Of a stretch of DNA of 64,000 nucleotides, positions 48,751-64,000 are shown in pieces. Both the position numbers and the translations under genes were made by a program. This DNA comes from Escherichia coli (lineage in GTDB: Bacteria; Pseudomonadota; Gammaproteobacteria; Enterobacterales; Enterobacteriaceae), in NCBI RefSeq assembly GCF_030384885.1, contig NZ_CP128613.1; one strand, 5' to 3'. The stretch's first letter is position 1. Each line of letters begins with the position of its first letter. The notes under the pieces are model-generated. The model was not told the DNA's origin. It saw only the letters and a program-made list of their open reading frames with translations, and made no database searches.

Positions 48751-48758
48751 CCGTGTTT

Positions 48759-48786
48759 AGCCCCGCTTCGGCGGGGCTTTGTTCTT
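48759..48786 (+). terminator. Hairpin after btsT
   Basis: AGCCCCGC-TTCG-GCGGGGCT followed by TTGTTCTT. Confidence 0.55.
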
Positions 48787-48799
48787 ATCAGAGTGAACT

Positions 48800-49003
48800 A
48801 TGTTTGGTAACTTAGGACAGGCAAAAAAATATCTCGGCCAGGCGGCAAAGATGTTGATTGGCATTCCAGACTACGACAACTACGTCGAGCATATGAAGAC
48901 CAACCATCCCGACAAGCCGTACATGAGCTATGAAGAATTCTTCCGCGAACGCCAGAACGCGCGCTACGGCGGCGATGGTAAAGGCGGTATGCGCTGTTGT
49001 TAA
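48800..49003 (+). CDS. yjiX: Small protein YjiX (YbdD/YjiX family)
   Basis: 67-aa [31 protein letters not shown]...; co-located with the CstA-family gene. Confidence 0.85.
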
Positions 49004-49013
49004 TGGAGAGAGC

Positions 49014-49970
49014 ATGAACCCGATTGCAGTTACCCTACTCACCGGTTTTTTAGGCGCAGGCAAAACCACCCTGCTGCGCCATATTCTTAATGAACAGCAC
49101 GGCTACAAAATTGCCGTGATTGAAAACGAATTCGGCGAAGTCTCCGTTGATGATCAACTGATTGGCGACCGCGCCACGCAGATCAAAACGCTGACCAACG
49201 GCTGCATCTGTTGTTCGCGCTCCAACGAGCTGGAGGACGCGCTACTCGACCTGCTGGATAATCTCGACAAGGGCAATATTCAGTTCGACCGTCTGGTCAT
49301 TGAATGCACAGGCATGGCCGATCCCGGCCCGATTATTCAGACCTTTTTCTCCCATGAGATTTTATGCCAGCGTTACCTGCTGGACGGCGTGATTGCGCTG
49401 GTGGATGCGGTACATGCCGATGAGCAGATGAACCAGTTCACCATCGCCCAGTCACAGGTTGGCTACGCCGACCGCATTCTGCTGACCAAAACCGACGTCG
49501 CAGGCGAAGCAGAAAAACTGCGTGAACGCCTGGCGCGCATCAACGCCCGCGCACCGGTCTACACCGTCACCCACGGCGACATCGATCTGGGCCTGCTGTT
49601 CAACACCAACGGTTTTATGCTGGAAGAAAACGTCGTCAGCACCAAACCACGTTTCCACTTTATCGCGGATAAACAAAACGATATTTCGTCGATTGTGGTG
49701 GAACTGGATTACCCGGTAGATATCAGCGAAGTTTCCCGCGTGATGGAAAACCTGCTGCTGGAGTCGGCGGATAAACTGCTACGTTACAAAGGGATGCTGT
49801 GGATTGACGGCGAACCTAATCGCCTGTTGTTCCAGGGCGTCCAGCGCCTCTACAGCGCCGACTGGGACCGCCCGTGGGGCGATGAAAAACCGCATAGCAC
49901 TATGGTGTTTATCGGGATTCAGCTGCCGGAGGATGAGATTCGGGCAGCGTTTGCGGGGTTGAGGAAGTAA
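49014..49970 (+). CDS. yjiA: CobW/COG0523-family metal-binding GTPase YjiA
   Basis: 318 aa from MNPIAVTLLTGFLGAGKTTLL (Walker A); CICC motif. Confidence 0.92.
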   Translation: MNPIAVTLLTGFLGAGKTTLLRHILNEQHGYKIAVIENEFGEVSVDDQLIGDRATQIKTLTNGCICCSRSNELEDALLDLLDNLDKGNIQFDRLVIECTGMADPGPIIQTFFSHEILCQRYLLDGVIALVDAVHADEQMNQFTIAQSQVGYADRILLTKTDVAGEAEKLRERLARINARAPVYTVTHGDIDLGLLFNTNGFMLEENVVSTKPRFHFIADKQNDISSIVVELDYPVDISEVSRVMENLLLESADKLLRYKGMLWIDGEPNRLLFQGVQRLYSADWDRPWGDEKPHSTMVFIGIQLPEDEIRAAFAGLRK

Positions 49971-49979
49971 GGGGTTATG

Positions 49980-50010
49980 GGCCGGATAAGGCGCAGCCGC
50001 ATCCGGCCTG
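49980..50010. repeat. REP element
   Basis: GCCGGATAAGGCGCAGCCGCATCCGGC palindromic unit between yjiA and mrr. Confidence 0.6.
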
Positions 50011-50015
50011 ATATT

Positions 50016-50930
50016 TCACTCAAAATAGTCCATATCCAGTTTCGGCACCTTCAACAAACGTGAAGAAACCCCTACTTCGTTTTCGATCATTAAGTGCACC
50101 AGGCGTTCCCCATCAACCAACACCATACCCTCGACGGATTGGGCAAAGTCACGCGCCTGAGAAGTAAATCCAGAAGTGGTAATAAACACCCCACGTTTCG
50201 CTTTTTGCCCAGCCAGTGCGCCGTAAAATGCCTGTAATTCTGGCCTGCCTACAGTATTCTGCCAACGTTTTGCCTGAACATAAACTTTCTCCAGGCCAAG
50301 TTTATCAAGCGATATCACACCATCGATGCCACCATCTCCAGTACCGCCAACACGCTGCAAATCATCACGGTGGCCGCCATACCCCAGGCGATGCAAAACA
50401 TCCAGAACAATGACTTCAAAGCGCGAAGGAGAAACCTGCAATAAGTTTTCCAGAACCTCATCAGCCACCGCATCACGAAGCTCTTTTAGCGCCTGATCTA
50501 ACCGATCGTCCGGGCTGCTCTTTGCAAGTTCTTCATGATCGGGAGAGTCGGCTTTCGGATCTAAATCGACGGCATCCGGCCGTGACTTAAGTTTGACATT
50601 CACAAAAGCGAAGGCCAGATGGTTCGTCTCCTGCTCCGTCATTGGCTGGGGATGAGACGCAACCCAGTCAAAACCCGCAGGAGTCAGGCACCATTTGCCA
50701 CGCGACAAACTTTGCGACAACCCGGCACGTTTTAAACGGTCATGCGCCCAGCCTGCACGATTTTTATAAACAAGTTGTCCGCTGGTAATGACTTTCGCTC
50801 GCTGGCTGTCATCCAGTCCTAATGCATCCGCGGCAGCCTCATGAACATCACGCGCGGCTGCACCTTCCGGTTTTGTTGCCAGATAACGCAGAACAGGTTC
50901 AATAAATTTGTCATAGGTAGGAACCGTCAT
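50016..50930 (-). CDS. mrr: Mrr modification-dependent (type IV) restriction endonuclease
   Basis: 304-aa ORF with N-terminal winged-helix region and C-terminal Mrr-cat nuclease domain; adjacent to hsdR. Confidence 0.9.
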   Translation of the reverse strand: MTVPTYDKFIEPVLRYLATKPEGAAARDVHEAAADALGLDDSQRAKVITSGQLVYKNRAGWAHDRLKRAGLSQSLSRGKWCLTPAGFDWVASHPQPMTEQETNHLAFAFVNVKLKSRPDAVDLDPKADSPDHEELAKSSPDDRLDQALKELRDAVADEVLENLLQVSPSRFEVIVLDVLHRLGYGGHRDDLQRVGGTGDGGIDGVISLDKLGLEKVYVQAKRWQNTVGRPELQAFYGALAGQKAKRGVFITTSGFTSQARDFAQSVEGMVLVDGERLVHLMIENEVGVSSRLLKVPKLDMDYFE

Positions 50931-51117
50931 AGTACATCCTTGCAGAATCAGGTAGATGTTTTTCGGCTACTATAACACTACCAAAATAGACGAACACGTT
51001 AGAAATGAGTCAGTTGCTGTGACCGTGGTCATTGCCCGGAAAGGTACAGAAAGCTAAGATGAGATGTTATGGGCCTTAAATATTTGGACAGGCCCGCACA
51101 GCAATGGATTAATAACA

Positions 51118-54100
51118 ATGATGAATAAATCCAATTTTGAATTCCTGAAGGGCGTCAACGACTTCACTTATGCCATCGCCTGTGCGGCGGAAAATAACTA
51201 CCCGGATGATCCCAACACGACGCTGATTAAAATGCGTATGTTTGGCGAAGCCACAGCGAAACATCTTGGTCTGTTACTCAACATCCCCCCTTGTGAGAAT
51301 CAACACGATCTCCTGCGCGAACTCGGCAAAATCGCCTTCGTTGATGACAACATCCTCTCTGTATTTCACAAATTACGCCGCATTGGTAACCAGGCGGTGC
51401 ACGAATATCATAACGATCTCGACGATGCCCAGATGTGCCTGCGGCTCGGGTTCCGCCTGGCTGTCTGGTACTACCGTCTGGTCACCAAAGATTATGACTT
51501 CCCGGTGCCGGTGTTTGTGTTGCCGGAACGTGGTGAAAACCTCTATCACCAGGAAGTGCTGACGCTAAAACAACAGCTTGAACAGCAGGCGCGAGAAAAA
51601 GCGCAGACTCAGGCGGAAGTGGAAGCGCAACAGCAGAAGCTGGTTGCCCTGAACGGCTATATCGCCATTCTGGAAGGCAAGCAGCAGGAAACCGAAGCGC
51701 AAACCCTGGCTCGCCTTGCGGCACTGGAAGCACAGCTCGCCGAGAAGAACGCGGAACTGGCAAAACAGACCGAACAGGAACGTAAGGCTTACCACAAAGA
51801 AATTACCGATCAGGCCATCAAGCGCACACTCAACCTTAGCGAAGAAGAGAGTCGCTTCCTGATTGACGCGCAACTGCGTAAAGCAGGCTGGCAGGCCGAC
51901 AGCAAAACCCTGCGCTTCTCCAAAGGCGCACGCCCTGAACCCGGCGTCAATAAAGCCATTGCTGAATGGCCGACCGGCAAAGATGAAACGGGTAATCAGG
52001 GCTTTGCGGATTATGTGCTGTTTGTCGGCCTCAAACCCATCGCGGTGGTAGAGGCGAAACGTAAAAATATCGACGTTCCCGGCAAGCTCAATGAGTCTTA
52101 TCGCTACAGCAAATGCTTCGATAATGGCTTCCTGCGGGAAACCTTGCTTGAGCACTACTCACCGGATGAAGTGCATGAAGCGGTGCCGGAGTATGAAACC
52201 AGCTGGCAGGACACCAGCGGCCAACAACGGTTTAAAATCCCCTTCTGCTACTCGACCAACGGGCGCGAATACCGCGCAGCAATGAAAACTAAAAGCGGCA
52301 TCTGGTATCGCGACGTGCGTGATACCCGTAATATGTCGAAAGCCTTACCCGAGTGGCATCGCCCGGAAGAGCTGCTGGAAATGCTCGGCAGTGAACCGCA
52401 AAAACAGAATCAGTGGTTTGCCGATAACCCTGGCATGAGCGAGCTGGGCCTGCGTTATTATCAGGAAGATGCCGTCCGCGCGGTTGAAAAGGCAATCGTC
52501 AAGGGTCAACAAGAGATCCTGCTGGCGATGGCGACCGGTACCGGTAAAACCCGTACGGCAATCGCCATGATGTTCCGCCTGATCCAGTCCCAACGTTTTA
52601 AACGCATTCTCTTCCTTGTGGATCGCCGTTCTCTTGGCGAGCAGGCGCTGGGGGCGTTTGAAGATACGCGTATTAACGGCGACACCTTCAACAGCATTTT
52701 CGACATTAAAGGTCTGACGGATAAATTCCCGGAAGACAGCACCAAAATTCACGTTGCCACCGTACAGTCGCTGGTGAAACGCACCCTGCAATCAGATGAA
52801 CCAATGCCGGTGGCCCGTTACGACTGTATCGTCGTTGACGAAGCGCATCGCGGCTATATTCTCGATAAAGAGCAGACCGAAGGCGAGCTGCAGTTCCGCA
52901 GCCAGCTGGATTACGTCTCTGCCTACCGTCGCATTCTCGATCACTTCGATGCGGTAAAAATCGCCCTCACCGCCACCCCGGCGCTGCATACGGTGCAGAT
53001 TTTCGGCGAGCCGGTTTACCGTTATACCTACCGTACCGCGGTTATCGACGGTTTTCTGATCGACCAGGATCCGCCGATCCAAATCACCACCCGCAACGCC
53101 CAGGAGGGAGTTTATCTCGCCAAAGGCGAGCAGGTTGAGCGCATCAGCCCGCAGGGGGAAGTGATCAACGACACCCTGGAAGACGATCAGGATTTTGAGG
53201 TCGCCGACTTTAACCGTGGCCTGGTGATCCCGGCGTTTAACCGCGCCGTCTGTAACGAACTCACCAACTACCTTGACCCGACCGGGTTACAAAAAACGCT
53301 GGTCTTCTGCGTCACTAATGCTCATGCCGATATGGTGGTGGAAGAGCTGCGTGCCGCGTTCAAGAAAAAGTATCCGCAACTGGAGCACGACGCGATCATC
53401 AAGATCACTGGTGATGCCGATAAAGACGCGCGCAAAGTGCAGACCATGATCACCCGCTTCAATAAAGAGCGGCTGCCCAATATCGTGGTAACCGTCGACC
53501 TGCTGACGACCGGCGTCGATATTCCGTCGATCTGTAATATCGTGTTCCTGCGTAAAGTACGCAGCCGCATTCTGTACGAACAGATGAAAGGCCGCGCCAC
53601 GCGCTTATGCCCGGAGGTGAATAAAACCAGCTTTAAGATTTTTGACTGTGTCGATATCTACAGCACGCTGGAGAGCGTCGACACCATGCGTCCGGTGGTG
53701 GTGCGTCCGAAGGTGGAACTGCAAACGCTGGTCAACGAAATTACCGATTCAGAAACCTATAAAATCACCGAAGCGGATGGCCGCAGTTTTGCCGAGCACA
53801 GCCATGAACAACTGGTGGCGAAGCTCCAGCGCATCATCGGCCTGGCCACGTTTAACCGTGACCGCAGCGAAACGATAGATAAACAGGTGCGTCGTCTGGA
53901 TGAGCTATGCCAGGACGCGGCGGGCGTGAACTTTAACGGCTTCGCCTCGCGCCTGCGTGAAAAAGGGCCGCACTGGAGCGCCGAAGTCTTTAACAAACTG
54001 CCTGGCTTTATCGCCCGTCTGGAAAAGCTGAAAACGGACATCAACAACCTGAATGATGCGCCGATCTTCCTCGATATCGACGATGAAGTGGTGAGTGTAA

Positions 54101-54630
54101 AATCGCTGTACGGTGATTACGACACGCCGCAGGATTTCCTCGAAGCCTTTGACTCGCTGGTGCAACGTTCCCCGAACGCGCAACCGGCATTGCAGGCAGT
54201 TATTAATCGCCCGCGCGATCTCACCCGTAAAGGGCTGGTCGAGCTACAGGAGTGGTTTGACCGCCAGCACTTTGAGGAATCTTCCCTGCGCAAAGCATGG
54301 AAAGAGACGCGCAATGAAGATATCGCCGCCCGGCTGATTGGTCATATTCGCCGCGCTGCGGTGGGCGATGCGCTGAAACCGTTTGAGGAACGTGTCGATC
54401 ACGCGCTGACGCGTATCAAGGGCGAAAACGACTGGAGCAGCGAGCAATTAAGCTGGCTCGATCGTTTAGCGCAGGCGCTGAAAGAGAAAGTGGTGCTCGA
54501 CGACGATGTCTTCAAAACCGGCAATTTCCACCGTCGCGGCGGGAAGGCGATGCTGCAAAGAACCTTTGACGATAATCTCGACAGCCTGCTCGATAAATTC
54601 AGCGATTATATCTGGGACGAACTGGCCTGA
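51118..54630 (+). CDS. hsdR: Type I restriction enzyme R subunit HsdR
   Basis: 1170 aa from MMNKSNFEFLKG...; SF2 helicase motifs (LLAMATGTGKT Walker A, DEAH-like VVDEAHRG). Confidence 0.95.
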   Translation: MMNKSNFEFLKGVNDFTYAIACAAENNYPDDPNTTLIKMRMFGEATAKHLGLLLNIPPCENQHDLLRELGKIAFVDDNILSVFHKLRRIGNQAVHEYHNDLDDAQMCLRLGFRLAVWYYRLVTKDYDFPVPVFVLPERGENLYHQEVLTLKQQLEQQAREKAQTQAEVEAQQQKLVALNGYIAILEGKQQETEAQTLARLAALEAQLAEKNAELAKQTEQERKAYHKEITDQAIKRTLNLSEEESRFLIDAQLRKAGWQADSKTLRFSKGARPEPGVNKAIAEWPTGKDETGNQGFADYVLFVGLKPIAVVEAKRKNIDVPGKLNESYRYSKCFDNGFLRETLLEHYSPDEVHEAVPEYETSWQDTSGQQRFKIPFCYSTNGREYRAAMKTKSGIWYRDVRDTRNMSKALPEWHRPEELLEMLGSEPQKQNQWFADNPGMSELGLRYYQEDAVRAVEKAIVKGQQEILLAMATGTGKTRTAIAMMFRLIQSQRFKRILFLVDRRSLGEQALGAFEDTRINGDTFNSIFDIKGLTDKFPEDSTKIHVATVQSLVKRTLQSDEPMPVARYDCIVVDEAHRGYILDKEQTEGELQFRSQLDYVSAYRRILDHFDAVKIALTATPALHTVQIFGEPVYRYTYRTAVIDGFLIDQDPPIQITTRNAQEGVYLAKGEQVERISPQGEVINDTLEDDQDFEVADFNRGLVIPAFNRAVCNELTNYLDPTGLQKTLVFCVTNAHADMVVEELRAAFKKKYPQLEHDAIIKITGDADKDARKVQTMITRFNKERLPNIVVTVDLLTTGVDIPSICNIVFLRKVRSRILYEQMKGRATRLCPEVNKTSFKIFDCVDIYSTLESVDTMRPVVVRPKVELQTLVNEITDSETYKITEADGRSFAEHSHEQLVAKLQRIIGLATFNRDRSETIDKQVRRLDELCQDAAGVNFNGFASRLREKGPHWSAEVFNKLPGFIARLEKLKTDINNLNDAPIFLDIDDEVVSVKSLYGDYDTPQDFLEAFDSLVQRSPNAQPALQAVINRPRDLTRKGLVELQEWFDRQHFEESSLRKAWKETRNEDIAARLIGHIRRAAVGDALKPFEERVDHALTRIKGENDWSSEQLSWLDRLAQALKEKVVLDDDVFKTGNFHRRGGKAMLQRTFDDNLDSLLDKFSDYIWDELA

Positions 54631-54830
54631 CACGTATACACTTCATCCTTCAGGCTGCCTCTGCGTTGGCTGCGCTCGTTCACCCCGGTCACGTACTTCT
54701 GTACGCTCCCGGGGATTCACTCACTTGCCGCCTTGATGCAACCTGAATGATTTTGTGTATATTACCCTCGGCAATTTCTTCTTCTGCGGCCCGATGAATT
54801 TGGGCCGCTGCTTAATTTACGGAACTCACA

Positions 54831-56420
54831 ATGAACAATAACGATCTGGTCGCGAAGCTGTGGAAGCTGTGCGACAACCTGCGCGATGGCGGCGTTTCCT
54901 ATCAAAACTACGTCAATGAACTCGCCTCGCTGCTGTTTTTGAAAATGTGTAAAGAAACCGGACAGGAAGCGGAATACCTGCCGGAAGGCTACCGCTGGGA
55001 TGACCTGAAATCCCGTATCGGCCAGGAGCAGTTGCAGTTCTACCGTAACCTGCTGGTACATCTGGGCGCCGACAATCAAAAGCTGGTGCAGGCAGTGTTC
55101 CAGAACGTCAACACCACCATTACCCAGCCGAAACAGTTGACCGAGCTGGTCAGCAATATGGATTCACTGGACTGGTACAACGGCGCGCACGGTAAGTCGC
55201 GCGATGACTTCGGCGATATGTACGAAGGGCTGTTGCAGAAGAACGCGAATGAAACCAAGTCTGGCGCGGGCCAGTACTTCACCCCGCGTCCGCTGATTAA
55301 AACCATTATTCATCTGCTGAAACCGCAGCCGCGTGAAGTGGTGCAGGACCCGGCGGCAGGTACGGCGGGCTTTTTGATTGAAGCCGACCGCTATGTTAAG
55401 TCGCAAACTAATGATCTGGACGACCTTGATGGCGACACGCAGGATTTCCAGATCCACCGCGCGTTTATCGGCCTCGAACTGGTGCCCGGCACCCGTCGTC
55501 TGGCACTGATGAACTGCCTGCTGCACGATATTGAAGGCAACCTCGACCACGGCGGCGCAATCCGTCTGGGCAACACCCTGGGCAGCGACGGTGAAAACCT
55601 GCCGAAAGCGCATATTGTCGCCACTAACCCGCCGTTTGGCAGCGCCGCAGGCACCAACATTACCCGCACCTTTGTTCACCCGACCAGCAACAAACAGTTG
55701 TGCTTTATGCAGCATATTATCGAAACGCTGCATCCCGGCGGTCGTGCGGCGGTCGTGGTGCCGGATAACGTACTGTTTGAAGGCGGCAAAGGCACCGACA
55801 TCCGTCGTGACCTGATGGATAAGTGTCATCTGCACACCATTCTGCGTCTGCCGACCGGTATTTTTTACGCGCAGGGCGTGAAAACCAACGTGCTGTTCTT
55901 TACCAAAGGGACGGTGGCGAATCCGAATCAGGATAAGAACTGTACCGACGACGTGTGGGTGTACGACCTGCGTACCAATATGCCGAGCTTCGGCAAGCGC
56001 ACGCCGTTTACCGACGAGCATTTGCAGCCGTTTGAGCGCGTGTATGGCGAAGACCCGCACGGTTTAAGCCCGCGCACTGAAGGGGAATGGAGTTTTAACG
56101 CCGAAGAGACGGAAGTTGCCGACAGCGAAGAGAACAAAAACACCGATCAGCATCTGGCCACCAGCCGCTGGCGCAAGTTCAGCCGCGAGTGGATCCGCAC
56201 CGTGAAATCCGATTCGCTGGATATCTCCTGGCTGAAAGATAAAGACAGCATCGACGCCGACAGCCTGCCGGAGCCGGATGTGTTAGCGGCAGAAGCGATG
56301 GGTGAACTGGTACAGGCATTGGGTGAACTGGATGCGCTGATGCGTGAACTGGGGGCGAGCGATGAGGCGGATGCACAGCGTCAGTTGCTGGAAGAAGCGT
56401 TTGGTGGGGTGAAAGAATGA
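54831..56420 (+). CDS. hsdM: Type I R-M N6-adenine DNA methyltransferase subunit HsdM
   Basis: 529-aa ORF with NPPF catalytic motif (IVATNPPFGSAAG) and SAM-binding region. Confidence 0.95.
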   Translation: MNNNDLVAKLWKLCDNLRDGGVSYQNYVNELASLLFLKMCKETGQEAEYLPEGYRWDDLKSRIGQEQLQFYRNLLVHLGADNQKLVQAVFQNVNTTITQPKQLTELVSNMDSLDWYNGAHGKSRDDFGDMYEGLLQKNANETKSGAGQYFTPRPLIKTIIHLLKPQPREVVQDPAAGTAGFLIEADRYVKSQTNDLDDLDGDTQDFQIHRAFIGLELVPGTRRLALMNCLLHDIEGNLDHGGAIRLGNTLGSDGENLPKAHIVATNPPFGSAAGTNITRTFVHPTSNKQLCFMQHIIETLHPGGRAAVVVPDNVLFEGGKGTDIRRDLMDKCHLHTILRLPTGIFYAQGVKTNVLFFTKGTVANPNQDKNCTDDVWVYDLRTNMPSFGKRTPFTDEHLQPFERVYGEDPHGLSPRTEGEWSFNAEETEVADSEENKNTDQHLATSRWRKFSREWIRTVKSDSLDISWLKDKDSIDADSLPEPDVLAAEAMGELVQALGELDALMRELGASDEADAQRQLLEEAFGGVKE

Positions 56421-57805
56421 GTTTCAACTCAACATCAAAAGAATTAATTGAGCAAAATATCAATGGGTTACTTTCAAGCCATGAGAGCTGGTTACGTATT
56501 CCAATGGATTCCGTAGCAAACATCACAAACGGTTTTGCTTTTAAGTCGGCAGAATTTAATAATCGTAAAGATGGTGTACCATTAATTAGAATTCGTGATG
56601 TTCTTAAAGGTAGTACATCGACTTATTACTCGGGGCAAATTCCTGAGGGATATTGGGTATATCCCGAAGACTTAATCGTGGGAATGGATGGTGATTTTAA
56701 TACAACTATATGGCGCTCGGAGCCCGCTCTGTTAAATCAACGAGTATGTAAAATCGAAGTTCAGGAAGACAAATACAATAAAAGATTTTTCTATCATGCC
56801 TTACCAGGATATTTATCCGCAATCAATGCAAATACGTCCTCGGTTACTGTAAAGCATCTTTCTTCCAGGACACTTCAAGATACCCTACTTCCGTTGCCAC
56901 CACTTGCCGAACAAAAAATCATCGCTGAAAAACTCGATACGCTGCTGGCGCAGGTAAACAGCACCAAAGCACGTCTTGAGCAAATCCCACAAAACCTGAA
57001 ACGTTTTCGTCAGGCGGTGCTTCATGTTGCAGTGAGCGGGAAATTAACTGAAAAATGGCGATTAGAAAATGCAACTTTAGAAAACTCATACGAATGGAAG
57101 GTGCAATCTTTATCTGATCTTGGTGTTTTAGCTCGAGGTAAATCTAAACATCGACCTAGAAACGATCCTCGCCTATTTGGGGATAAGTATCCATTTATTC
57201 AAACAGGTGAAGTTGCCAATAGTTCAGGAAGAATTAAAAGAGCAAATAAATTTTATAGTGAGTTTGGTTTATCACAAAGCAAGCTATTTCCAAAAGATAC
57301 CTTATGTATAACTATTGCTGCCAACATTGCGGATACAGCCATATTAGAGATTGAGGCATGTTTCCCGGACAGTGTCGTTGGTTTCATTTCTGATAAAGAT
57401 AAATCTCATGTATCCTTTGTGAAGTATCTAATTGATGTTAACAAAGATAATCTTGAAGCATTTGCACCAGCTACAGCACAAAAAAATATTAACTTAAAGG
57501 TTTTAAACGAACTTAAACTTCCTATTCCTGATATTAAAGAACAAGCCGAAATCGTTCGCCGCGTCGAGCAACTCTTCGCCTACGCCGACACCATAGAAAA
57601 ACAGGTCAACAACGCCCTGGCCCGCGTCAACAACCTGACGCAATCCATCCTGGCAAAAGCGTTCCGTGGTGAACTCACCGCCCAGTGGCGGGCCGAAAAC
57701 CCGGATTTGATCAGCGGAGAAAACAGCGCCGCCGCGTTGCTGGAAAAAATCAAAGCTGAACGCGCAGCCAGCGGGGGTAAAAAAGCCTCACGTAAAAAAT
57801 CCTGA
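56417..57805 (+). CDS. hsdS: Type I R-M specificity subunit HsdS (type IA family) with non-K-12 target-recognition domains
   Basis: 462-aa ORF overlapping the hsdM stop. Central (LPPLAEQKIIAEKLDTLLAQV...) and C-terminal (EQAEIVRRVEQLFAYADTIEKQVNNALARVNNLTQSILAKAFRGELTAQWR...) conserved regions are type IA-like; both variable domains differ from my recollection of the K-12 protein. Confidence 0.85.
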   Translation: MSFNSTSKELIEQNINGLLSSHESWLRIPMDSVANITNGFAFKSAEFNNRKDGVPLIRIRDVLKGSTSTYYSGQIPEGYWVYPEDLIVGMDGDFNTTIWRSEPALLNQRVCKIEVQEDKYNKRFFYHALPGYLSAINANTSSVTVKHLSSRTLQDTLLPLPPLAEQKIIAEKLDTLLAQVNSTKARLEQIPQNLKRFRQAVLHVAVSGKLTEKWRLENATLENSYEWKVQSLSDLGVLARGKSKHRPRNDPRLFGDKYPFIQTGEVANSSGRIKRANKFYSEFGLSQSKLFPKDTLCITIAANIADTAILEIEACFPDSVVGFISDKDKSHVSFVKYLIDVNKDNLEAFAPATAQKNINLKVLNELKLPIPDIKEQAEIVRRVEQLFAYADTIEKQVNNALARVNNLTQSILAKAFRGELTAQWRAENPDLISGENSAAALLEKIKAERAASGGKKASRKKS

Positions 57806-57817
57806 ACATTATTTTCT

Positions 57818-57842
57818 GGCGCACCTTTCCGGTGCGCTTTTT
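57818..57842 (+). terminator. Rho-independent terminator after hsdS
   Basis: GGCGCACC-TTTCC-GGTGCGC followed by TTTTT. Confidence 0.7.
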
Positions 57843-57937
57843 ATTATTTCACGCCAATCATAACCCACATAAATATATTTAAATCATTCCAGAAATTGCC
57901 CATTTTATTCTATTTTTAGCTGGACTTTCCCCATATT

Positions 57938-57957
57938 TACTGATGATATATCCAGGT
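57938..57957. promoter_or_regulatory. LexA (SOS) box upstream of symE
   Basis: TACTGATGATATATCCAGGT has the CTG-N10-CAG form of the LexA consensus (TACTGTATATATATACAGTA), about 80 bp upstream of the symE ATG. Confidence 0.5.
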
Positions 57958-57961
57958 ATTT

Positions 57962-58038
57962 AGCGCGGTGCGGATGTGCGCCAACACACCCGCACCGCTA
58001 ATCACAATCCCTATTTCTAAGGAATAGTAATCATGACT
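57962..58038 (-). ncRNA. symR: SymR cis-antisense sRNA (approximate bounds)
   Basis: On the minus strand a TAGAAT -10-like hexamer lies just inside the symE 5' end with a predicted start near 58038; a perfect 9-bp inverted repeat (GCGGTGCGG...CCGCACCGC, 57963-57997) sits at the expected 3' end. Consistent with the known ~77-nt SymR overlapping the symE start. Confidence 0.4.
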
Positions 58039-58374
58039 GACACGCATTCTATTGCACAACCGTTCGAAGCAGAAGTCTCCCCGGCAAATAACCGTCAATT
58101 AACCGTGAGTTATGCGAGTCGCTACCCGGATTACAGCCGTATTCCCGCCATCACCCTGAAAGGTCAGTGGCTGGAAGCCGCCGGTTTTGCCACCGGCACG
58201 GCGGTAGATGTCAAAGTGATGGAAGGCTGTATTGTCCTCACCGCCCAACCACCCGCCCCCGAAGAGAGCGAACTGATGCAGTCACTGCGCCAGGTGTGCA
58301 AACTGTCAGCGCGTAAACAAAAGCAGGTGAAGGAGTTTATTGGGGTGATTGCCGGTAAACAGAAAGTCGCGTAA
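58033..58374 (+). CDS. symE: SOS-induced type I toxin SymE (AbrB/SpoVT-fold, promotes RNA cleavage)
   Basis: 113-aa [37 protein letters not shown]...; located between hsdS and mcrB as in K-12. Confidence 0.88.
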
Positions 58375-58535
58375 CAGCGTTTACTCCCGGTTAACCACCG
58401 GGAGCCTTCCACTGACTCAATAGAAACTTTCCCCCTCAGTAAATATTTACCAGTCTGATTTTGCAGTAAAAATCTATTGTTTCAGTACGTTGCGAAAGCG
58501 ATAATAGAGGCTTAGCAATGAGGAAGGCATATCTT

Positions 58536-59915
58536 ATGGAATCTATTCAACCCTGGATTGAAAAATTTATTAAGCAAGCACAGCAACAACGTTCGCAATC
58601 CACTAAAGATTATCCAACGTCTTACCGTAACCTGCGAGTAAAATTGAGTTTCGGTTATGGTAATTTTACGTCTATTCCCTGGTTTGCATTTCTTGGAGAA
58701 GGTCAGGAAGCTTCTAACGGTATATATCCCGTTATTCTCTATTATAAAGATTTTGATGAGTTGGTTTTGGCTTATGGTATAAGCGACACGAATGAACCAC
58801 ATGCCCAATGGCAGTTCTCTTCAGACATACCTAAAACAATCGCAGAGTATTTCCAGGCAACTTCAGGTGTATATCCTAAAAAATACGGACAGTCCTATTA
58901 CGCCTGTTCCCAAAAAGTCTCACAGGGTCTTGATTATACCCGGTTTGCCTCCATGCTGGACAACATAATCAACGACTATAAATTAATATTTAATTCTGGC
59001 AAGAGTGTTATTCCACCTATGTCAAAAACTGAATCATACTGTCTGGAAGATGCGTTAAATGATTTGTTTATCCCTGAAACCACGATAGAGACGATACTCA
59101 AACGATTAACCATCAAAAAAAATATTATCCTCCAGGGGCCGCCCGGCGTTGGAAAAACCTTTGTTGCACGCCGTCTGGCTTACTTGCTGACAGGGGAAAA
59201 GGCTCCGCAACGCGTCAATATGGTTCAGTTCCATCAATCTTATAGCTATGAGGATTTTATACAGGGCTATCGTCCGAATGGTGTCGGCTTCCGACGTAAA
59301 GACGGTATATTTTACAATTTTTGTCAGCAAGCTAAAGAGCAGCCAGAGAAAAAGTATGTTTTTATTATAGATGAAATCAATCGTGCCAATCTCAGTAAAG
59401 TATTTGGCGAAGTGATGATGTTAATGGAACATGATAAACGAGGTGAAAACTGGTCTGTTCCCTTAACCTACTCCGAAAACGATGAAGAACGATTCTATGT
59501 TCCGGAGAATGTTTATATTATCGGTTTAATGAATACTGCCGATCGCTCTCTGGCCGTTGTTGATTATGCCCTGCGCAGACGATTTTCTTTCATAGATATT
59601 GAGCCAGGTTTTGATACGCCACAGTTCCGGAATTTTTTACTGAATAAAAAAGCAGAACCTTCATTTGTTGAATCTTTATGCCAAACAATGAACGAGTTAA
59701 ACCAGGAAATCAGCAAAGAGGCCACTATCCTTGGGAAAGGATTCCGCATTGGGCATAGTTACTTCTGCTCCGGGTTGGAAGATGGCACATCTCCTGATAC
59801 GCAATGGCTTAAGGAAATTGTGATGACGGATATCGCCCCTTTACTCGAAGAATATTTCTTTGATGATCCCTATAAACAACAGATATGGACCGACAAATTA
59901 TTAGGTGACTCATAG
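58536..59915 (+). CDS. mcrB: McrB, GTP-dependent 5-methylcytosine-specific restriction subunit (AAA+)
   Basis: 459 aa from MESIQPWIEKFIKQAQQQRS...; Walker A GPPGVGKT; AT-rich coding sequence. Confidence 0.93.
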   Translation: MESIQPWIEKFIKQAQQQRSQSTKDYPTSYRNLRVKLSFGYGNFTSIPWFAFLGEGQEASNGIYPVILYYKDFDELVLAYGISDTNEPHAQWQFSSDIPKTIAEYFQATSGVYPKKYGQSYYACSQKVSQGLDYTRFASMLDNIINDYKLIFNSGKSVIPPMSKTESYCLEDALNDLFIPETTIETILKRLTIKKNIILQGPPGVGKTFVARRLAYLLTGEKAPQRVNMVQFHQSYSYEDFIQGYRPNGVGFRRKDGIFYNFCQQAKEQPEKKYVFIIDEINRANLSKVFGEVMMLMEHDKRGENWSVPLTYSENDEERFYVPENVYIIGLMNTADRSLAVVDYALRRRFSFIDIEPGFDTPQFRNFLLNKKAEPSFVESLCQTMNELNQEISKEATILGKGFRIGHSYFCSGLEDGTSPDTQWLKEIVMTDIAPLLEEYFFDDPYKQQIWTDKLLGDS

Positions 59916-60961
59916 TGGAACAGCCCGTGATACCTGTCCGTAATATCTATTACATGCTTACCTATGCATGGGGTTATTTACAGGAAATTAAGCAGGCCGA
60001 CCTTGAAGCCATTCCCGGTAACAATCTTCTTGATATCCTGGGGTATGTATTAAATAAAGGGGTTTTACAGCTTTCACGCCGAGGGCTTGAGCTTGATTAC
60101 AATCCTAATACAGAAATCATTCCTGGCATCAAAGGGCGAATAGAGTTTGCTAAAACAATACGCGGCTTCCATCTTAATCATGGGAAAACCGTCAGTACGT
60201 TTGATATGCTTAATGAAGACACGCTGGCTAACCGAATTATAAAAAGCACATTAGCCATGTTAATTAAGCATGAAAAGTTAAACTCAGCCATCAGAGATGA
60301 AGCTCGTTCACTTTATAGAAAATTACCGGGCATTAGCACTCTTCATTTAACTCCACAGCATTTCAGCTATCTGAATGGCGGAAAAAATACGCGTTATTAT
60401 AAATTCGTTATAAGTGTCTGCAAGTTCATCGTCAATAATTCTATTCCAGGTCAAAACAAAGGACACTACCGTTTCTATGATTTTGAAAGAAACGAAAAAG
60501 AGATGTCATTACTTTATCAAAAGTTTCTTTATGAATTTTGCCGCCGTGAATTAACGTCTGCAAACACAACCCGCTCTTATTTAAAATGGGATGCATCGAG
60601 CATATCGGATCAGTCACTTAATTTGTTACCTCGAATGGAAACTGACATCACCATTCGCTCATCAGAAAAAATACTTATCGTTGACGCCAAATACTATAAG
60701 AGCATTTTTTCACGACGAATGGGCTCAGAAAAATTTCATTCTCAAAATCTTTATCAACTGATGAATTACTTATGGTCGTTAAAGCCTGAAAATGGCGAAA
60801 ACATAGGGGGCTTATTAATATACCCCCACGTAGATACCGCAGTGAAACATCGTTATAAAATTAATGGCTTCGATATTGGCTTGTGTACCGTCAATTTAGG
60901 TCAGGAATGGCCGTGTATACATCAAGAATTACTCGACATTTTCGGTGAATATCTCAAATAA
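59915..60961 (+). CDS. mcrC: McrC, nuclease subunit of McrBC
   Basis: 348-aa ORF starting at a GTG that overlaps the mcrB stop; PD-(D/E)xK-like C-terminal region (...IVDAKYYK...). Confidence 0.92.
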   Translation: MEQPVIPVRNIYYMLTYAWGYLQEIKQADLEAIPGNNLLDILGYVLNKGVLQLSRRGLELDYNPNTEIIPGIKGRIEFAKTIRGFHLNHGKTVSTFDMLNEDTLANRIIKSTLAMLIKHEKLNSAIRDEARSLYRKLPGISTLHLTPQHFSYLNGGKNTRYYKFVISVCKFIVNNSIPGQNKGHYRFYDFERNEKEMSLLYQKFLYEFCRRELTSANTTRSYLKWDASSISDQSLNLLPRMETDITIRSSEKILIVDAKYYKSIFSRRMGSEKFHSQNLYQLMNYLWSLKPENGENIGGLLIYPHVDTAVKHRYKINGFDIGLCTVNLGQEWPCIHQELLDIFGEYLK

Positions 60962-61017
60962 GCGGTAAGTTTTATAGAAAATACCGCTCCCGACACCACA
61001 TCGGGAGCGGCTCATCA

Positions 61018-61353
61018 TCAGGAGGCGATCACCTCCACCAGCACATCCGTTGCCCAGCTCTCTTCACTGTTGACCACATTCCCTTCCTGACAAGCTTGAT
61101 CCATTTTGACTAACTGGAAAGAAACGTCATCGCGGAAATCAAAGTAATGCCATTGCGATGAAAAGTTGATGCGCCAGTAGCCCATCCCCTGATCGAAGCG
61201 GATCTTCAATACCTGACCATCCTCAAAAGTCACCGTCAGTTTACGATGGTGAGGGATATCGCGCGGCGAGTCGAACACCGTCAGTTCTACCGGCCTGCCC
61301 AGCGCAGCAGCAAACCACTGATCAGCGAAATCCTGAAAATCCGCTATGCTCAT
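61018..61353 (-). CDS. Hypothetical protein, downstream member of a coupled gene pair
   Basis: 111-aa ORF whose ATG overlaps the stop of the upstream 277-aa ORF (ATGA overlap); no motif I can recognise. Confidence 0.4.
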
Positions 61354-62183
61354 CCAGTCATGGAAAGGCCGGTTAGCAGTCCATTCAAAAAATGCGTTCC
61401 TGTTTCATCATCTAACGGTATTGGAAACTCGCTTCGCCAGGTAGGGTGAACCTTATCAAGCTGTTGTACTGGTTCTTTGTGATTTATTAGGTTGTGAGTA
61501 AGTACTAAGGAATTGAGGTTATCAGCCATATGACTGATAAGTTCTACAGAGGTATCTTCGCTAAAAACAGTAGGCAGCGCTGATTTTTCTATGACAGCTC
61601 TTGCCAGCGAAAGGGCTGAAAAACCTGACTGCTTTGCTTGCTCATATTGTCCAAGGATCCTGGAGAAAACAGCCAGAAAGCGACTGTCTGATTCTTTGAG
61701 TAGCCGGAAAGGTAAACCACCTTCACTGAATAATGTTCCGAGAAAATTGCGTCGTTCAGATTCATAAAATCGAATTGGGCGCAGCCAGTAATCTTCCATC
61801 CCTTTCGGTACGATAGTACCAAGCTCTGTGGCGGTGAATGAAATCCCTATTTTTTTATATATAGGGTCCCACGTCCATCCGCATTGCCGTTCATAATCCC
61901 TGCGGTACCACTCAGAGCAAAAAAGAACAAAACAGGCAGCAAAGTCCCTATTACATATATTAGATTGTGATTGACCGACTGCACGGAGTAGCTGCGTTAA
62001 TTGGGTATATTCATCATTGGTTGCATGATATTCATAAAGAGGACGGCCATCCGGTTGTCTCAACCCTCTAAGATTCACAAAGTTACTTAGCCAGGAAGTA
62101 CATTTTACCCATGAAATGTATTCTGATTGACCCAAAGCAAGCTCCTTAGAGATAAAAGATACAAAAACAAAACCCCACAACAT
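61350..62183 (-). CDS. Hypothetical protein, upstream member of a coupled gene pair (may correspond to part of the K-12 yjiV/yjiT pseudogene region)
   Basis: 277-aa ORF convergent with mcrC; weak RBS; preceded by a markedly AT-rich spacer of about 460 bp. Confidence 0.4.
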
Positions 62184-62643
62184 TTCTAATTTGAAAGAAA
62201 ACCTTTCAGAATATTGTATAGTTACTCAGGCGGCAACAACTATTTTTTCAGGTCGATACTATAAATCAATTTTAGATAAAAATGATATCAACCATCTATT
62301 AATCACAACTCATTTATCACCTGATTTTATAATTTCAAATGAAAATAAATCTCAAACAATCAAAAAGTATTCAGTAGCTGACATTTAACTTTCCAGGATA
62401 TAAAACAATTAGAGAAACTGCACAATAGCGAATAATGAGAGTTGTAAAGTCAGTCAAAAAACACAAGTAATCACTGTGCGTTTTTTGACCGTTATCGACA
62501 TGAGTTTAAAGAGGTTAGTGAAGAAGATATTCCTGTACACTCCATACCTATTGATGAATTGTCTCGGGAAAATTTTTATAACTTAATATAAAAACATAAA
62601 AACGTTTTATTATATATAAATCTATATCCCCCCTCACTCCACA

Positions 62644-62808
62644 TCCTCCCTGCGTAACCCGATATCCCTCAACCGCTCATCACTCATCTGCTGTAACACG
62701 CGTCGGGTCTGCATTTGCCGCCGCCAACGCCTCACCGCCTGCCAGAGTTGCACAAGGCCGATAAACGGCGCTTTAGCTCTGTTTTCGTGAAATTCCATCT
62801 GCTGCCTC
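62644..62808 (-). CDS. yjiS: DUF1127-family small protein YjiS
   Basis: Not in the supplied track (under 60 aa). Reverse-strand translation gives MEFHENRAKAPFIGLVQLWQAVRRWRRQMQTRRVLQQMSDERLRDIGLRREDVE (54 aa). Confidence 0.75.
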
Positions 62809-62974
62809 CTCATCTTTCAGAGGCTTCATCATCCGCCTTCTGGCAGTTCACAATACAGATGCAAATATTAGTTTTATTTAACATACAGACAGGTTAAAAC
62901 AACATCTGCATCCGGTTTTTTAGCCTCATCTGTACCGGTTTTTCTCTCTGTATGGTCCAAATAAGGAGTACAGC

Positions 62975-64000
62975 ATGACGCGTTATCAACATCTGGCGAC
63001 TCTGCTTGCCGAACGGATTGAGCAAGGGCTGTATCGTCACGGGGAGAAATTGCCGTCGGTGCGCAGCTTAAGTCAGGAGCACGGCGTCAGTATCAGCACC
63101 GTGCAGCAGGCGTATCAGACGCTGGAGACGATGAAGCTCATCACTCCGCAGCCGCGTTCGGGTTATTTTGTCGCACAACGTAAAGCCCAGCCGCCAGTAC
63201 CGCCGATGACGCGTCCGGTGCAGCGCCCGGTGGAAATTACCCAGTGGGATCAGGTGCTGGATATGCTGGAGGCGCATAGCGACAGTGCCATTGTTCCGTT
63301 AAGCAAAAGCACGCCGGATGTCGAAACGCCCAGCCTGAAACCGCTGTGGCGGGAGCTAAGCCGGGTGGTGCAGCATAATCTGCAAACCGTTCTCGGTTAT
63401 GACTTGTTAGCCGGTCAGCGAGTATTGCGAGAGCAGATTGCCCGCCTGATGCTCGACAGCGGCTCGGTGGTCACCGCCGATGACATCATCATCACCAGCG
63501 GCTGCCATAACTCGATGTCGCTGGCGTTAATGGCAGTGTGTAAACCGGGCGATATTGTCGCGGTCGAATCCCCCTGTTATTACGGTTCGATGCAGATGCT
63601 GCGCGGCATGGGCGTGAAAGTGATTGAAATCCCAACCGATCCAGAAACTGGCATCAGCGTTGAAGCGCTGGAACTCGCGCTGGAACAGTGGCCGATTAAA
63701 GGCATCATTCTGGTGCCAAACTGTAATAATCCGCTGGGATTTATTATGCCGGACGCACGCAAACGGGCCGTTCTCTCTCTCGCTCAGCGTCATGATATTG
63801 TGATTTTTGAAGATGATGTCTACGGCGAACTGGCGACGGAGTATCCGCGCCCGCGGACCATTCATTCCTGGGATATCGACGGGCGAGTGCTGTTGTGCAG
63901 CTCGTTCAGTAAAAGCATTGCACCAGGCCTGCGCGTGGGCTGGGTCGCGCCGGGACGTTATCACGATAAACTGCTGCATATGAAATATGCCATCAGCAGC
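62975..64000 (+). CDS. yjiR: MocR-family regulator YjiR (GntR HTH fused to aminotransferase-like PLP domain); 3' end beyond the window
   Basis: Not in the supplied track (no stop within the window). Translation from the ATG at 62975 gives MTRYQHLATLLAERIEQGLYRHGEKLPSVRSLSQEHGVSISTVQQAYQTLE... (GntR HTH), then an aminotransferase fold with SFSKSIAPGLRVGW (PLP-lysine motif); RBS AAGGAG upstream. Confidence 0.85.
   Translation, partial: MTRYQHLATLLAERIEQGLYRHGEKLPSVRSLSQEHGVSISTVQQAYQTLETMKLITPQPRSGYFVAQRKAQPPVPPMTRPVQRPVEITQWDQVLDMLEAHSDSAIVPLSKSTPDVETPSLKPLWRELSRVVQHNLQTVLGYDLLAGQRVLREQIARLMLDSGSVVTADDIIITSGCHNSMSLALMAVCKPGDIVAVESPCYYGSMQMLRGMGVKVIEIPTDPETGISVEALELALEQWPIKGIILVPNCNNPLGFIMPDARKRAVLSLAQRHDIVIFEDDVYGELATEYPRPRTIHSWDIDGRVLLCSSFSKSIAPGLRVGWVAPGRYHDKLLHMKYAISS

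Follow-up and report, generated by a model that had tools for sequence, protein, structure and literature searches.

EcoKI of Escherichia coli K-12, EcoBI of E. coli B and EcoUTI89I (Eco646I), which reads CCA(N7)CTTC, are described restriction–modification systems of type IA. The EcoKI site is AAC(N6)GTGC, and the EcoBI site is TGA(N8)TGCT (PMC2490747). Experiments with UTI89 demonstrated that an exchange of hsdS alone within type IA alters the specificity (Mehershahi and Chen 2021, PMC8287963).

By the mechanism established for type I enzymes, and proposed for the system studied here, one HsdS and two HsdM subunits would form a methyltransferase, and the addition of two HsdR subunits would yield an ATP-dependent restriction enzyme. 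Each target-recognition domain (TRD) of HsdS would recognize one of the two parts of a bipartite site and present one adenine for N6-methylation, while two conserved HsdS helices would set the spacing between the TRDs. In the sites of EcoKI, EcoBI and EcoDI, 9 positions separate the A that is methylated in half-site 1 from the T that pairs with the methylated A in half-site 2; EcoUTI89I fits this spacing if the first T of CTTC opposes the methylated A. Allelic TRD exchange within the EcoKI family has been a textbook subject since the 1980s.

Organization of the hsd Locus

The window, i.e., the whole stretch of 64,000 nucleotides of E. coli DNA that was analyzed, includes mrr, hsdR, hsdM, hsdS, symE and mcrBC, the standard immigration control region of E. 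coli. The gene order btsT-yjiA-mrr-hsdR-hsdM-hsdS-symE-mcrB-mcrC was the same as in K-12 and UTI89, and the locus is thus allelic with the hsd locus of K-12.

The first gene of the system, hsdR (51118..54630, plus strand), is intact and encodes the restriction (translocase/endonuclease) subunit of 1170 aa; the program-made ORF reaches further upstream, to an ATG at 51064. Its product matched the NCBIfam profile NF008521 (type I R-M endonuclease) with 1740 bits and was 98.9% identical to K-12 HsdR across all 1170 aa (13 substitutions). The next gene, hsdM (54831..56420, plus strand), is also intact and encodes the m6A methyltransferase subunit of 529 aa, which was 97.5% identical to K-12 HsdM over its full length (13 substitutions). 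Both subunits had been described as EcoKI-like in an earlier sequence-only reading of this DNA, and these values bear that out. In E. coli 2013C-4282, hsdR is annotated at the matching position, and the gene corresponding to hsdM carries the same name.

The specificity subunit is encoded by hsdS (56417..57805, plus strand), an intact ORF of 462 aa whose ATG overlaps the hsdM stop codon by 4 nt (ATGA). A terminator-like hairpin followed by a T-run (57818..57848, plus strand; GGCGCACC-TTTCC-GGTGCGC) begins 13 nt past the hsdS stop codon. The terminator scan gave 8 pairs for it, 6 of which are G-C, and its sequence is also kept in the EcoBI-type locus. We regard it as a putative terminator.

Domain Structure of HsdS and Comparison with EcoKI

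Based on Pfam annotation, HsdS contains two Methylase_S domains (PF01420) at aa 28–191 (E 1.1e-18) and aa 226–401 (E 1.4e-20). The protein scored 376 bits against NF007278 (type I specificity subunit), below the equivalog cut-off of 662 bits, as expected since the allele differs. WP_072004068.1 from E. coli 2013C-4282 is the same protein (100% identity) and occurs on 273 contigs in public data under a generic name only.

Four parts of the gene can be distinguished, all on the plus strand. TRD1 (56417..56890, aa 1–158) is of the EcoBI type, as judged by identity to TRD1 of EcoBI HsdS. It is followed by the central conserved region typical of type IA HsdS (56891..57022, aa 159–202), which comprises the coiled-coil spacer and the HsdM contact. 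The pattern PLPPLAEQKIIAEKLDTLLAQV.STKAR.EQIPQ.LKRFRQAVL in this region is common to EcoKI, EcoBI, EcoUTI89I and a Salmonella allele described below. The TRD2 module (57023..57532, aa 203–372) is of neither K nor B type, its identity being 16% to EcoKI TRD2 and 21% to EcoBI TRD2. The C-terminal conserved region of type IA HsdS (57533..57805, aa 373–462) completes the protein.

In the region-by-region comparison with EcoKI HsdS, identity was 16.9% in TRD1 (aa 1–158), 87.7% in the central region (aa 159–215), 16.2% in TRD2 (aa 216–370) and 97.8% in the C-terminal region (aa 371–462). Hence, HsdS has the conserved central and C-terminal regions of type IA flanking two variable TRDs, in agreement with the earlier reading, and its TRDs are not K-12-like. 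By sequence identity, which serves here as a proxy for the complementation, cross-hybridization and antibody cross-reaction that define the family, the system with this HsdS is of type IA (EcoKI family). It shares with EcoKI near-identical HsdR and HsdM subunits, the conserved HsdS regions, the gene order and the neighbors mrr, symE and mcrBC, but differs from it in both TRDs, which are unrelated.

The sequence-only reading had proposed that both variable domains diverge from K-12, whose protein was said to begin with MSAGKLPEGW. The K-12 protein does begin in this way, HsdS of the window starts with MSFNSTSKELIEQNI, and neither variable domain was identical to its EcoKI counterpart. Since neither TRD is related to the K-12 domain in the same place, the EcoKI site AAC(N6)GTGC would not be expected for this allele, as had been anticipated.

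The GC content was 0.376 in TRD1 and 0.340 in TRD2, compared with 0.485 and 0.548 in the conserved parts of hsdS and 0.562 in hsdM. The variable domains are therefore AT-rich relative to their flanks, as stated in the sequence-only reading, but this feature does not set a swapped allele apart from that of K-12, whose TRDs have a GC content just as low (0.373 and 0.342). Type IA TRDs are thus AT-rich in general, and the feature is not a mark of a recent swap in this strain.

TRD1 and Its Relationship to EcoBI

The window system has the locus, the HsdR/HsdM family and the conserved HsdS regions in common with EcoBI. Moreover, TRD1 was 95.6% identical at the amino acid level (151/158) to TRD1 of EcoBI HsdS, the reference being the protein named 'EcoBI specificity subunit' in UniRef. 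The two domains differ by seven substitutions (S21I, E23D, P29S, A45S, S67N, T103A and R107C, window residue first), with a dN/dS of 0.23, and EcoBI HsdS has the same unusual long N-terminus (MSFNSTSKELIEQNINGLL). This type of TRD1 was found in 114 of 5426 complete E. coli genomes.

The likeness does not extend to TRD2, which is unrelated to that of EcoBI (20.9% identity). At the nucleotide level, similarity to EcoBI hsdS stops at nt 57019 and returns at 57537, and the window HsdS is 12 codons shorter (462 vs. 474 aa). Given the 95.6% identity of TRD1, half of the specificity is predictable, and half-site 1 is predicted to be TGA. The second half-site should differ from that of EcoBI, since the TRD2 domains are unrelated.

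A Related Allele in Salmonella

The same pair of TRD1 and TRD2 was found in a Salmonella enterica allele (P0149, NCTC genome LR134141.1) at the orthologous mrr-hsdRMS-symE locus. Its HsdS has the same length as that of the window (462 aa) and is 83.6% identical to it overall, with 84.8% in TRD1 and 74.7% in TRD2; for the Salmonella HsdM, identity is 94.5%. One source labels this homologue 'StySJI subunit S'. We distrust the label, which is probably an automatic best-hit name: StySJI recognizes GAG(N6)GTRC and is made of the StySB and StySP TRDs.

In comparison with the Salmonella allele, dN/dS was 0.025 for TRD1 and 0.145 for TRD2, indicating purifying selection. The Escherichia–Salmonella dS was about 3 (saturated) for TRD1, 1.1 for TRD2 and 0.48 for hsdM. 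This pattern would fit a long-term upkeep of specificity alleles by frequency-dependent selection, but it is also compatible with TRDs that were acquired separately from elsewhere.

Distribution and Shuffling of TRD2

TRD2 was present in only 6 of 5426 complete E. coli genomes, and the family to which it belongs is highly conserved and occurs in at least 582 species genomes. Several alleles combine TRD2 with another TRD1. The HKUOPY1 allele has a 97.4% identical TRD2 next to a different TRD1, strain A30 likewise combines this TRD2 with another TRD1, the P0163 allele joins the TRD1 of EcoUTI89I (100%) to a window-type TRD2, and in the P0162 and P0164 alleles the window-type TRD2 is accompanied by further TRD1s. 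In this way, at least five different TRD1s, that of the window included, are paired with TRD2 at the hsd locus. Conversely, the B-like TRD1 is paired with other TRD2s in EcoBI, P0167 and P0169, which makes at least four TRD2s in all. The allele is a clear natural case of TRD shuffling. EcoUTI89I itself shares the locus and the family with the window system, but neither of its TRDs resembles those of the window HsdS.

Predicted Recognition Site

From the 9-position spacing, a site of the form TGA(N8)T..., or one with fewer N after TGA and a second half-site that places its T at position 12, would be expected. As for the second half-site, the closest relative of TRD2 linked to a determined motif is the C-terminal TRD of HsdS from plasmid pSYSX of Synechocystis sp. 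PCC 6803 (47% identity). The site of the pSYSX enzyme (M.Ssp6803V) is GGA(N7)TTGG (PMC6105098); this motif belongs to the whole enzyme, and either half may be that of the TRD in question. In addition, the pSYSX system is of a different type I family with other conserved regions and spacing. This one 47%-identical relative weakly suggests TTGG, which we favor, or TCC as half-site 2.

Motifs with TTGG have been published for C. chauvoei, F. litoralis, Leptolyngbya PCC 6406 and Desulforegula; GGA(N7)TTGG, GAA(N7)TTGG and GAT(N8)TTGG are among the TTGG-containing sites. The comparison of TRD2 with TTGG enzymes covered the Synechocystis HsdS only (47% identity). With the Synechocystis TRD as a protein query, no HsdS of a named TTGG enzyme was present among the matches listed, all of which were short (up to 277–300 aa). 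Of the organisms with the 80 top-ranking loci of the TRD2 family (at least 582 in total), six named ones were checked, and all six were absent from the supplement of Blow et al. A tblastn search of plasmids for relatives of TRD2 yielded Synechocystis pSYSX, L. cremoris p3107E and an E. coli plasmid; a published motif exists for Synechocystis only, and the paper on L. cremoris 3107 reports no methylome.

Two other guides to half-site 2 were considered and rejected. TRD2 did not resemble TRD1 of EcoUTI89I, which reads CCA, and this leaves a plain CCA/TGG half-site unsupported. In the sequence search of the PDB, EcoKI HsdS matched the window HsdS via the conserved regions only, and the best match to TRD2 was TRD1 of M. 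jannaschii MJ0130 (1YF2), whose motif, CAA(N7)TGG or GAY(N5)GTAA, provides no usable half-site.

A literature search on 2013C-4282 yielded phylogeny papers only, one on HKUOPY1 yielded nothing relevant, and neither brought up a methylome or restriction assay of the allele. When type I motifs that start with TGA or end in TCA were searched for in full texts, the matches were to EcoBI itself, to CRP sites and to unrelated passages, and a full-text literature search for the peptide KHRPRN gave zero matches.

Alternative Explanations

An EcoBI-like TRD1 would also be expected of an EcoBI isoschizomer, and, in principle, two TRDs need not be related to recognize the same bases; for this allele to be an isoschizomer of EcoBI (or EcoKI), the unrelated TRD2 would have to read TGCT too. 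However, TRD2 is just 21% and 16% identical to the TRD2 domains of EcoBI and EcoKI, and the site of the enzyme with its nearest relative, GGA(N7)TTGG, contains neither TGCT nor GTGC. To our knowledge, type I TRDs that share a half-site resemble each other recognizably, and they do so even between families, as the GAG TRDs of types IA and IB show. We therefore consider isoschizomerism extremely improbable. Another alternative is a change in the first half of the site. The known specificity belongs to the EcoBI form of TRD1 only, in which residues 103 and 107 are A and C instead of the T and R of the window, and the window form TTIWRS is that of the majority among relatives, with EcoBI as the outlier. 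If the seven substitutions had altered half-site 1, an active system would recognize a site not starting with TGA. TRDs as similar as these are normally given the same half-site, and, with 95.6% identity and a dN/dS of 0.23, such a change appears unlikely.

It is also conceivable that the intact genes encode a system that is inactive in this strain, because it is poorly expressed or because a substitution disables it, in which case there would be no new active specificity. Silent type I systems are known, such as that of Synechocystis pSYSG; HsdR and HsdM each carry 13 substitutions relative to K-12, and the active state is only predicted. On the other hand, the hsdR, hsdM and hsdS ORFs are all full length, the identical HsdS recurs on 273 contigs, and this level of substitution is normal for type IA alleles, as the 94.5% identity of the Salmonella HsdM illustrates. 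Strong purifying selection on the TRDs in comparison with Salmonella (dN/dS 0.025 and 0.145) likewise argues for function, and inactivity seems very unlikely to us.

Taken together, the hsdS of the window is very probably an intact type IA specificity allele whose site is neither AAC(N6)GTGC nor TGA(N8)TGCT. More tentatively, by joining a B-type TRD1 to this TRD2 the allele may represent a type IA specificity not described so far, with TGA(N8)TTGG or TGA(N8)TCC as the predicted site, and perhaps an old lineage kept in both Escherichia and Salmonella; we hold this to be possible, if somewhat doubtful.

Significance

The allele is an ordinary example of long-known allelic variation and conceptually nothing new. 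The exact protein was already public. The practical value is modest: a restriction barrier and an m6A motif unlike those of the laboratory strains K-12 and B are predicted. They would be relevant to transforming or conjugating DNA into strains of the lineage, Escherichia cryptic clade I, some isolates of which are Shiga-toxin-positive, and to reading the methylomes of these strains. Furthermore, the allele directs attention to a very widespread and strongly conserved TRD family.

Structure of the hsdS Allele

The sequence-only reading placed hsdS at 56417-57805, and an intact ORF on the + strand encoding 462 aa was confirmed there, its ATG overlapping the hsdM stop codon (ATGA). Two Pfam Methylase_S domains (aa 28-191 and aa 226-401) were found in HsdS. 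The HsdR and HsdM proteins, proposed to be EcoKI-like, are 98.9% and 97.5% identical to those of K-12 over their full length. The K-12 HsdS does begin with MSAGKLPEGW, as that reading had it, and the window protein begins with MSFNSTSKELIEQNI. As that reading also supposed, the framework is retained and both target-recognition domains differ: the central (aa 159-215) and C-terminal conserved regions are 87.7% and 97.8% identical to EcoKI, and TRD1 (aa 1-158) and TRD2 (aa 216-370) only 16.9% and 16.2%. By every feature that can be tested on sequence, the system belongs to type IA, while its TRDs, tested in the same way, make it neither the EcoKI nor the EcoBI specificity allele.

The TRDs are indeed AT-rich relative to their flanks (GC 0.376 for TRD1 and 0.340 for TRD2, against 0.485 and 0.548 in the conserved hsdS segments and 0.562 in hsdM), but this does not mark a recent swap. 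Equally low values are seen in the TRDs of K-12 (0.373 and 0.342), so low GC characterizes type IA TRDs generally.

Identity and Combinations of the TRDs

Judged from its sequence, TRD1 is the TRD1 of EcoBI. It is 95.6% identical (151/158 residues) to that of the 474-aa HsdS of strain P27_L1_05.20, which UniRef names the EcoBI specificity subunit, and the window DNA tracks the EcoBI-type allele to nt 57019, after which similarity is nil until 57537. At two of the seven substituted positions, 103 and 107, it is EcoBI that stands apart among the relatives. The B-type TRD1 is present in 114 of the 5426 complete genomes of E. coli searched. In BL21(DE3) (NC_012892.2, L003 1501-3603), hsdS is split by IS1A (IS1) after about codon 214, which agrees with the known hsdS(B) r-m- genotype.

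TRD2 is unrelated to its counterparts in K (16%) and B (21%), and its DNA was found in only 6 of the 5426 genomes. Four of these (2013C-4282, 2020CK-00188, Z142-3 and R32_14_1F) carry the same allele as the window, and the copy in the other two, HKUOPY1 and A30, is 96.7% identical. Beyond E. coli, members of the TRD2 family that are 50–77% identical to the window domain were found in the genomes of at least 582 species of Proteobacteria, Chloroflexi, Cyanobacteria, Firmicutes, Bacteroidetes and Archaea, and share motifs including RGKSKHRPRND, YPFIQTGD/E, CFPDSVVGF and APATAQKNINL. The relatives at the compared loci (L015-L094), 54–77% identical to the window TRD2, span Pseudomonas, Aliivibrio, cyanobacteria, Clostridia, Bacteroidetes and archaeal MAGs. 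Such conservation seems unusually strong for a domain usually termed variable.

The exchange of TRDs yielding new type IA specificities is classical, as in the StySP/StySB/StySQ/StySJ hybrids. In a full-length protein search, TRD2 was paired at type IA loci with at least five types of TRD1: the B type in the window allele, the HKUOPY1 type (homologues P0154 and P0157), and those of homologues P0162, P0164 and P0163, the last being 100% identical to the EcoUTI89I TRD1. Thus, HKUOPY1 HsdS shares TRD2 with the window (97.4% identity) and has another TRD1 (15%). Conversely, the B-type TRD1 occurs with other TRD2s in EcoBI itself, P0167 and P0169. The exact window protein is deposited as WP_072004068.1, seen on 273 contigs, under the generic name 'restriction endonuclease subunit S'; we found no characterization of the allele.

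The same pair of TRDs was found in Salmonella enterica (P0149, 83.6% identity) at an orthologous mrr-hsdR-hsdM-hsdS locus (LR134141.1, L010 6001-7389 compared with window 56417-57805). Between the two species, hsdM shows 94.5% amino acid identity, dS 0.48 and dN/dS 0.067; TRD1 shows 84.8%, dS of about 3 (saturated, pS 0.74) and 0.025; and TRD2 shows 74.7%, 1.1 and 0.145. Synonymous divergence in the conserved hsdS segments is 0.3–0.6. From these values it follows that both TRDs are functionally constrained, and that their sequences are either much older than the surrounding framework or of different donor origin.

Organization of the Immigration Control Region

According to the ORF list, the NCBIfam hits and the annotation at a public locus of identical sequence, the immigration control region of E. 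coli occupies window 48-64 kb. Downstream of btsT (46585-48750, +) and yjiA (48930-49970, +) lie mrr (50016-50930, -), hsdR (51118-54630, +), hsdM (54831-56420, +) and hsdS, followed by a terminator-like hairpin (57818-57838), symE (58033-58374, +) and the AT-rich genes mcrB (58536-59915, +; GC 0.403) and mcrC (59915-60961, +; GC 0.381). Both hsdR and hsdM are intact. Since mcrB, mcrC and mrr are intact as well, the complement of modification-dependent restriction genes beside the type I system is complete and K-12-like. The SymR antitoxin RNA (57962-58038, -; Rfam RF01809, 93 bits) is antisense to the symE start, and the SymE/SymR pair occupies the same place between hsdS and mcrB in K-12. 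In HKUOPY1, a helicase gene directly follows symE, and mcrBC is absent.

Over window 48417-61375, a single mismatch in 12,959 nt separates the sequence from that of 2013C-4282, whose complete genome belongs to Escherichia cryptic clade I and has stx1 (PMC10100065). Window 61374-64000 matches that genome at 100% identity 8.5 kb further along, which indicates an 8,528-bp deletion (L095 538-9065) in the source of the window. Lost are the greater parts of yjiT and of a 6.3-kb DEAD/DEAH-box helicase gene; the aligned flanks share two bases at the junction (61374/61375), and remnant ORFs of 111 aa (61018-61353, -) and 277 aa (61350-62183, -) are left. Pseudogene remnants are likewise found at this position in K-12. 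A contiguous match to the whole 14 kb (window 48417-64000) was found in none of the complete genomes searched.

Predicted Recognition Site

Type I systems methylate DNA through an HsdS1-HsdM2 complex and restrict it through HsdS1-HsdM2-HsdR2; each TRD is responsible for one half-site, and within a family the exchange of hsdS alone alters specificity. A type IA switch of this kind was shown experimentally with MG1655 hsdS installed in UTI89 (PMC8287963). EcoBI recognizes TGA(N8)TGCT (PMC2490747). By way of its EcoBI-like TRD1, the window enzyme would read TGA as half-site 1. In EcoKI, EcoBI and EcoDI, the methylated A of half-site 1 lies nine positions away from the T that pairs with the methylated A in half-site 2, and EcoUTI89I fits this spacing if the first T of CTTC opposes the methylated A. 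Together with TGA, the spacing would place a T at position 12, giving TGA(N8)T....

No half-site assignment for the TRD2 family was found in the literature consulted. The only relative found with a determined motif is the TRD at the C terminus of the HsdS encoded on Synechocystis pSYSX, 47% identical to TRD2, and M.Ssp6803V of this plasmid methylates GGA(N7)TTGG/CCAA(N7)TCC (PMC6105098), which makes TTGG or TCC the candidates for half-site 2. We tentatively favor TTGG, because CCAA/TTGG recurs across very different phyla, matching the breadth of the family: GAA(N7)TTGG in C. chauvoei, GAT(N8)TTGG in F. litoralis and CAAY(N8)TTGG in Leptolyngbya PCC 6406, with the half-site present in Desulforegula too.

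The seven substitutions in TRD1 may have altered half-site 1, though this is rather unlikely. It is quite improbable that the system is intact yet silent, as purifying selection and the recurrence of the identical protein speak against it. That the unrelated TRD makes the enzyme an isoschizomer of EcoBI or EcoKI is the least credible of these readings, with hardly any chance of being right. The prediction that the window allele specifies a site that is neither that of EcoKI nor that of EcoBI is well supported.
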